The notes: a model not told the origin generated them from the letters alone. A stretch of DNA of 37,327 bases from a virus (IMGVR_UViG_3300029886_000148); one strand, 5' to 3'; counted from the stretch's first letter, positions 29,529 to 30,020 are shown. Translations and numbers: made by a program.

Positions 29529-29762
29529 TTAATGCAGCCAGCTGTCGTCTTCCCACACCTTCTGCATAATTTTCATCACTTGTTTTCTTTCTTCGTCCAG
29601 TTGCAGTCCGGTCAGTTCCACACCGTTAGAGCTACCTTTGCGGATGCGAATTACCGTTTTTGGATATAGGGGGCGCAGATTGCGGTAAAGCTCGGATTCA
29701 AGGGCGTCCAGGGTAGACTGGCTAATCTTCTGCTCTTTATCGATCATTATTTCAATGCGCAT
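29529..29762 (-). CDS. DinI-family protein (Tum C-terminal-like)
   Basis: MRIEIMIDKEQKISQSTLDALESELYRNLRPLYPKTVIRIRKGSSNGVELTGLQLDEERKQVMKIMQKVWEDDSWLH aligns by eye with E. coli DinI; GAGGTGA RBS. The track ORF has a 24-aa extension. Confidence 0.75.
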   Translation of the reverse strand: MRIEIMIDKEQKISQSTLDALESELYRNLRPLYPKTVIRIRKGSSNGVELTGLQLDEERKQVMKIMQKVWEDDSWLH

Positions 29763-29772
29763 AAAAGTCACC

Positions 29773-29961
29773 TCAGCTGATGACATCCATTGAGCGGTTG
29801 TATTCGTGGGTTCTGATTTTTGCCATGAGTTCATCTGTCAGTTCAGAAACCCACTGCAAAGCCAGCCCCTTCTCTTCATCACTACACTCACTAGCCGCTA
29901 CAAGCTTAAGAAAAAAATCAATGCGCTGGAGCTTCAAAGACTCCAAAAAATAGTCCTGCAT
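29773..29961 (-). CDS. small hypothetical protein (62 aa), first gene of the LexA-controlled operon
   Basis: ATG preceded by AGGAGG; LexA box ~45 bp upstream. The longer track ORF would read through the LexA box, so the start is taken at MQDYFLESLK. Confidence 0.45.
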   Translation of the reverse strand: MQDYFLESLKLQRIDFFLKLVAASECSDEEKGLALQWVSELTDELMAKIRTHEYNRSMDVIS

Positions 29962-30004
29962 CTTTCCTCCTATGACACCACAAGCAATACTGTATACATA
30001 ACCA

Positions 30005-30020
30005 CTGTTTATATTTACAG
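30005..30020. promoter_or_regulatory. LexA box (SOS operator)
   Basis: CTGTTTATATTTACAG is a perfect CTGT-N8-ACAG palindrome; a weaker overlapping copy CTGTATACATAACCAC lies at 29990..30005. Confidence 0.6.

Follow-up and report, generated by a model that had tools for sequence, protein, structure and literature searches.

Described tum and antirepressor modules

In phage 186, the promoter p95 is repressed by LexA, the SOS response frees tum, and the Tum protein inactivates the CI repressor without cleaving it (PMC7708051; annotation of the 186 record). Tum is the product of one fused cistron of 146 aa, which lies just downstream of gene A behind a single LexA box, is followed by orf97 and acts on a 186-type CI. 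An internal GTG start with its own AAGGAGG is annotated within tum and yields a DinI-only product (7293..7523 of the 186 record); thus, the fused phage also makes the equivalent of a separate DinI-like protein.

A divided form of the gene has been described for other P2-like phages. According to a passage of PMC3121763, which cites Bunny et al. (2002) and a personal communication, tum is split in two in Fels-2 and PSP3, and for PSP3 the same passage attributes the antirepressor to the upstream gene and a DinI homologue to the downstream gene on the strength of that personal communication. The PSP3 record accordingly annotates tumA and tumB. In the prophage DuoHS of E. coli HS, the gene named tum is ECHS_RS04495 and its DinI-like neighbour is ECHS_RS04500; an in-frame start-to-stop deletion of the former abolishes mitomycin C lysis and viral (virion) foci, as does a lexA(Ind-) background (PMC12055606). 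A further variant is provided by the dinI-gfoA/gftA operons of the Salmonella Gifsy prophages, which are LexA-controlled and encode a DinI homologue together with a small antirepressor directed against a non-cleavable repressor, and in which non-polar dinI deletions are without clear effect on induction (PMC3121763). Apart from phages, LexA control has been analysed at colicin genes, where two LexA dimers bind cooperatively and double operators of the colicin type leave no detectable basal expression (PMC2994835).

The locus analysed here belongs to a stretch of viral DNA of 37,327 nucleotides (IMGVR_UViG_3300029886_000148), referred to below as the window. The original prediction for positions 29,529 to 30,020 was that a LexA box controls two small genes, the second of them DinI-like, as a signature of SOS inducibility of the 186 type. 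The operator, the two genes with matches to the two halves of Tum and a CI repressor of the 186 type support that reading; in addition, the accompanying statement that 186 Tum is LexA-controlled with a DinI-like C-terminal half is upheld by the record annotation (p95) and by homology. The module as a whole is already described, both in sequence records and experimentally, as a known DNA-damage switch of Fels-2/186-type prophages. The gene designations tumA (ORF1) and tumB (ORF2) are used in what follows.

With respect to these systems, the window combines two cistrons with a double LexA box, whereas 186 has one fused cistron behind a single box. The order of gene A, LexA box, small antirepressor gene and DinI-like gene is that of Fels-2 (STM2728/STM2726.1) and of PSP3 (tumA/tumB). 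Fels-2 TumA is 98.4% identical to that of the window and the TumB proteins are identical, while the Fels-2 CI is just 39% identical overall. PSP3 differs more: its TumA falls into another subfamily, phrog_1993, to which the N-terminal half of 186 Tum also belongs, its LexA box is single rather than double, and 3 nt instead of 10 nt separate its two genes. The Gifsy operons share the pairing of genes but are of a different (Gifsy) phage type and have dinI first, the reverse of the order in the window. A near-identical counterpart is found in DuoHS, the DNA of which agrees with the window at about 97% of positions between the end of gene A and the stop codon of tumB. Its TumB and CI proteins do not differ from those of the window, and its TumA does so in one residue; within the second LexA box, two spacer bases are different, and one more base differs just downstream.

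Prophage setting and LexA operator

The window represents an E. coli prophage of the P2 type that resembles Fels-2. It adjoins ybjL (1382..3067), the product of which is 100% identical to YbjL of E. coli HS, and the integrase gene lies at the far end from ybjL (36119..37327); this is the same chromosomal site, with the same gene order, as that of DuoHS in HS. The replication gene A (32529..30115, minus strand; gpA, PF05840, E 4e-126) is directly followed on the same strand by the module (30045..29529), and the succession of gene A and tum is common to the window, 186, PSP3, Fels-2 and DuoHS. Directly upstream of gene A, and overlapping its start, lies a gene for a Dam-family adenine methyltransferase (32526..33443, minus strand; TIGR00571, E 1.4e-96), which DuoHS carries in the same place. 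Beyond the methylase gene there is a CII-like activator gene and, on the other strand, the genes for the CI repressor and the integrase.

The module is widespread. Six complete E. coli genomes have an 801-bp region spanning it at 100% identity, and the region was matched in 1125 of the 5426 complete E. coli genomes (about a fifth), where the RefSeq labels across it read [quoted passage not shown]. Many Klebsiella P2-like phages carry the region at 98% identity, and Salmonella phage records give matches of lower identity.

At the other end of the module, a terminator scan called, on both strands, a short GC hairpin, CCTTGCCCCCAAGG (29511..29524), located just past the tumB stop, as a candidate weak terminator and putative end of the module. 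The tumB stop codon is exactly the point at which the window ceases to resemble DuoHS, and the cargo genes that follow in DuoHS are unlike those of the window. The variable cargo region (26894..29416) lies between tumB and the portal gene. It encodes a GNAT acetyltransferase (28997..29416, plus strand), a 231-aa HNH protein (27867..28562, minus strand) with a match to PDC-M68A, a candidate defence family of PADLOC (E 2e-29), and two further ORFs of 219 aa and 105 aa, the latter weakly matching a nucleotidyltransferase. The cargo could represent a defence island against phages, located in a P2 hotspot.

The LexA box of the original prediction was found on the minus strand at the positions given, 30005..30020. 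The complete 20-mer (box 1) is TACTGTAAATATAAACAGTG (30003..30022, minus strand), with the 16-mer core CTGTAAATATAAACAG at 30020..30005, and 43 nt separate the core from the tumA ATG, close to the predicted distance of about 45 bp. The core motif CTGT-N8-ACAG taken alone is weak evidence (one match against 0.54 expected by chance); box 1, which matches TACTGT-W8-ACAGT exactly, would be expected 0.01 times even with two mismatches allowed. The 20-mer consensus for LexA is TACTGTATATATATACAGTA, with which box 1 agrees at 17 of the 20 positions. Calling the box perfect was slightly generous. All TumA-family genes examined, from several P2-like lineages, are preceded by a LexA box at a distance of 33-46 nt, and box 1 itself is kept in Fels-2, SopEphi, SEN8, one Klebsiella phage and one Yersinia phage.

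The original prediction missed a second, overlapping box directly downstream. This candidate box 2 is CAGTGGTTATGTATACAGTA (29988..30007, minus strand; 16-mer core 30005..29990); its left half is degenerate, with GTG where CTG is expected, and its core has one base in common with that of box 1. In an alignment of upstream regions, the Fels-2 group (the window, Fels-2, SopEphi, SEN8, Klebsiella phi4.1 and Yersinia MLG42) has two abutting boxes, TACTGTAAATATAAACAGTGGTTATGTATACAGTA, whereas 186, PSP3, ESSI-2 and the Yersinia enterocolitica phages have a single box, which aligns with box 2 of the window.

The double site of 37 nt, TACTGTAAATATAAACAGTGGTTATGTATACAGTATT (29986..30022, minus strand), is 87-92% identical over 37-39 nt to operators of Col-type plasmids. 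A search of plasmids with a 43-nt site returned 162 records covering at least 80% of it, and small Col-type plasmids are among the matches listed; a cloacin gene follows one of the matching sites at a distance of 43 bp, and another site is on Y. pestis pPCP. When the operator of the window is aligned with those of the cloacin plasmid, of pPCP and of a Col-type plasmid from E. coli, the sequences are nearly identical through the CAGTGGTTAT junction, and the core agrees at most positions. Judged by its sequence, the tum operator is of the colicin type, with two overlapping LexA boxes, cores that share one base and the CAGTGGTTAT junction. The likeness is confined to the operator: colicin, cloacin and pesticin operators are double overlapping SOS boxes as in the window, but the -35 regions and the regulated genes of those systems are unrelated to those found here. 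In the literature searched, no mention of a double LexA operator was found for Fels-2-type phages.

The promoter of the operon is a candidate only by analogy. A promoter scan of the minus strand called none, with the -10 hexamer TACTGT scoring 3/6; since the consensus scan gave no call because of this weak -10, the promoter was deduced from p95 of 186. The annotated -10 of p95 is the same TACTGT, situated at the start of the 186 LexA site; the corresponding candidate in the window (30017..30022, minus strand) lies inside box 1. A candidate -35, TTTACA (30040..30045, minus strand), can be read 17 nt upstream of TACTGT and is kept in the six upstream regions of the Fels-2 group, the flanks of which have otherwise diverged. 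By this comparison, the LexA operator would overlap the -10 of the tum operon promoter.

Two tum genes and their relation to 186 Tum

tumA encodes 62 aa (29961..29773, minus strand) from an ATG at 29961 to a TGA at 29775..29773. The AGGAGG that was predicted to lead it was recovered at 29971..29966, 4 nt before the ATG, and this putative Shine-Dalgarno sequence is kept in relatives. tumB encodes 77 aa (29529..29762, minus strand) and begins, as predicted, 10 nt after tumA, with its ATG at 29762; its own candidate Shine-Dalgarno sequence, GAGGTG (29769..29774, minus strand), stands 6 nt before the ATG and overlaps the tumA stop, and the relatives have a purine-rich stretch of their own at this position.

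The second protein, TumB, matches PF06183 over the full length of the profile (positions 1-63 of 63; E 6.6e-23, 81.3 bits against a cut-off of 24.2) and aligns with residues 71-145 of 186 Tum at 41% identity (E 3e-24). It is the same protein in Fels-2 and DuoHS and is similar to PSP3 TumB. An assignment to the host chromosomal DinI was rejected, as the NCBIfam equivalog NF007893 gave 42.7 bits against a cut-off of 111; by these profile scores, TumB is a phage paralogue of DinI.

The relationship of the first protein to Tum is more distant. TumA is 98.4% identical to Fels-2 STM2728, and the one-residue difference from DuoHS is to ECHS_RS04495, the gene product named Tum there. A BLASTP comparison of TumA with 186 Tum gave no alignment, so that profile methods were needed for the link, and searches of Pfam, NCBIfam and PADLOC with TumA gave no family. 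Comparison in hhalign of a narrow TumA alignment with an alignment of the 186-type TumA reached 85.6%; a broader alignment of the TumA family, drawn from a profile search of 1.84 billion representatives, raised this to 97.5% (E 5e-12), with residues 1-44 matched to residues 1-44. Furthermore, the PHROG matches of the two proteins cross reciprocally: TumA matches phrog_698 (3.6e-38), phrog_8554 (2.4e-8) and phrog_1993 (2.2e-3), while residues 1-61 of 186 Tum match phrog_1993 (1e-22), phrog_8554 (1.4e-11) and phrog_698 (2.4e-5), and PSP3 TumA also matches phrog_1993. At the profile level, TumA is therefore distantly homologous to the antirepressor part of 186 Tum, its N-terminal half. An AlphaFold2 model of TumA is a two-helix hairpin (pLDDT 90.7), for which Foldseek returned only generic hairpins from the PDB (E at least 0.96), so that the fold adds no functional information. 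A sequence search of solved structures with the family profile of TumA found none, and the same search with 186 Tum found DinI only.

Since the profile links of both ORFs hold, the two genes correspond to the two halves of Tum, tumA to residues 1-44 and tumB to residues 71-145, which is the outcome that the proposed alignment to 186 Tum had anticipated. How the halves came to be apart had been left as a choice between a genuine split and a single tum gene broken by a frameshift, the latter standing for a sequencing error or a recent pseudogene. The combined size (62 + 77 against 146 aa, roughly Tum-sized as predicted) and the placement of the two ORFs in different frames, with the frame of tumB open for 25 codons upstream of its ATG, are what a broken gene would leave behind. 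Nonetheless, the window holds no single-frame Tum of 146 aa, and tumB lies in frame +1 relative to tumA, behind a stop codon and the gap of 10 nt; a two-cistron layout recurs in every relative examined (Fels-2, SopEphi, SEN8, Klebsiella phi4.1, Yersinia MLG42, DuoHS and PSP3), in the 1125 E. coli genomes mentioned above and in Salmonella, Klebsiella and Yersinia phages. Across those relatives the tumA stop is TGA, TAA or TAG by lineage, the gap ranges from 3 to 12 nt, and the frame of tumB relative to tumA is +1, +2 or 0. Moreover, tumB is served by a ribosome-binding site of its own, dN/dS is 0.06-0.10 for both ORFs at a pS of about 0.5 (about 0.09 for tumA), pointing to strong purifying selection on each, and a DinI domain follows the TumA part in none of the 88 cluster representatives of the TumA family (among the 1.84 billion representatives searched). 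A broken 186-like tum is thus almost certainly not what the window contains.

A subtler alternative is that the ribosome, by a programmed frameshift or by reading through the stop codon, also joins the two ORFs into a Tum-like fusion, in addition to the separate TumA and TumB. The two open frames of the window do overlap by 62 nt, and 186 derives a long and a short product from one gene. Against this, the shift required in the window is +1 and not the common -1, the relative frame varies by lineage, the tumB frame is closed within 1-4 codons of the tumB ATG in some lineages, and a slippery motif common to the lineages was not found; we regard such a product as highly improbable. The variation of stop codon, gap and frame effectively rules out a recent frameshift and a conserved programmed one alike. 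The split is genuine, as the first of the two options had it, and the layout extends over phages of Escherichia, Salmonella, Klebsiella and Yersinia. Close relatives of the N-terminal half of 186 Tum are likewise found in many cases as standalone proteins of 63-72 aa, carrying the NCBI name "Tum protein".

Proposed induction of the prophage and presumed target of TumA

We consider it very probable that the module serves to induce a P2-like prophage of the Fels-2/DuoHS type during the SOS response. As long as the lysogen is undamaged, LexA would occupy the double operator overlapping the -10, downstream of gene A, and keep the two-gene operon silent. Upon DNA damage, activation of RecA would lead to self-cleavage of LexA and to transcription of the operon, whereupon TumA, a predicted helical hairpin of 62 aa, would bind the 186-type CI and thereby relieve the lytic promoter of repression, allowing lytic growth. 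TumB would be a separate, co-transcribed polypeptide and not itself the inducer; its membership of the DinI family suggests modulation of RecA filaments and of the SOS signal as its probable role. Occupancy of both boxes by LexA and direct contact between TumA and CI are likewise what the comparison with described systems leads us to expect. To our knowledge, direct binding of Tum to CI has been shown solely for the fused 186 Tum.

TumA presumably acts on the CI repressor encoded at 35304..35879 on the plus strand (Phage_CI_repr and Phage_CI_C). This CI is 33% identical to 186 CI over the full length and 100% identical to the CI of DuoHS. Its match to Peptidase_S24 stays below threshold (16.3 against 23.3 bits), and it would therefore be a repressor with no confident self-cleavage domain, which supports the need for an antirepressor. 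Since TumA, TumB, CI and operator are identical or nearly so to those of DuoHS, the same induction pathway can be expected in the window. The primers used for the DuoHS deletion (PMC12055606) match the window on both sides of tumA, and the deletion leaves the ribosome-binding site of tumB intact. Some chance of a polar effect on tumB, the ribosome-binding site of which is kept, stays attached to that experiment.

This bears on the question of which of the two proteins induces the prophage. The opposite assignment, with the DinI-like protein as the real inducer and TumA as an accessory or leader peptide, could arise from annotation by homology, in which the name "Tum" leads to the DinI half. 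The PHROG and RefSeq name for 186 Tum is indeed "RecA filament binding protein DinI", TumA is without a curated family, and no report of a complementation of the DuoHS tum deletion was found. However, the deletion in DuoHS takes out tumA alone, with tumB retained, and induction is abolished; the PSP3 passage of PMC3121763 places antirepressor activity in the upstream gene (personal communication); the non-polar dinI deletions in the Gifsy prophages had no clear effect on induction (PMC3121763); and ESSI-2-type and some other P2-like phages have a LexA box with TumA but lack a DinI gene altogether. Induction by the DinI-like protein is very unlikely on this evidence, and TumA is retained as the putative inducer.

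The phages of the last kind are ESSI2_ev015 (Escherichia), ESSI-2 (Cronobacter) and one Logan contig, in which a consensus LexA box and a TumA-family gene come right after gene A and the next gene is ogr or portal, with no DinI-like gene. Because these genomes have the LexA box and TumA but no DinI gene, the DinI partner is optional; the LexA box and TumA form the conserved core, and the DinI-like part is frequent but separable.

Comparison of TumA with CI among the relatives provides an indication of where on the repressor TumA might act. Phages with 98-100% identical TumA have CI proteins that are just 39-53% identical overall to that of the window. The identity is unevenly distributed: the N-terminal HTH/DNA-binding domain is 69-78% identical and contains a near-invariant stretch, SKST[LM]A[TN]RY[LM]R, taken to be the recognition helix, while the C-terminal domain is 27-42% identical. 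In 186, with a different type of TumA, the N-terminal domain of CI is 42% identical to that of the window. This pattern suggests that TumA targets the N-terminal domain of CI, possibly across several CI variants; the same pattern would result if the tumA-tumB block had recently spread by horizontal transfer. We put forward, tentatively and as a possibility that we ourselves find rather doubtful on sequence comparison, that the TumA proteins of the Fels-2 group could act as antirepressors of broad specificity, recognising the conserved N-terminal domain of CI, and that, separately, the SOS threshold of these phages may be raised or delayed by the double operator relative to 186 and PSP3 with their single box. 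Broad specificity, if true, would allow one SOS-induced prophage to cross-induce co-resident P2-like prophages with divergent C-terminal oligomerisation domains in their CI.

By analogy with the described systems, the module would mark the prophage as inducible by DNA damage, including that caused by DNA-damaging antibiotics, with an antirepressor and not repressor cleavage as the route of induction. It opens no new biological question. The useful residue consists of the annotation of tumA, the colicin-type double operator and the conservation of TumA against the divergence of CI; the latter two, neither of which formed part of the original prediction, are modest leads on induction thresholds and prophage cross-talk.

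With regard to annotation, orthologues of TumA are "hypothetical protein" in the RefSeq E. coli genomes and in most phage records, and renaming this protein tumA would be a useful correction. One UniRef and phage record name for the protein is "levan regulatory protein", which looks like a mis-annotation.
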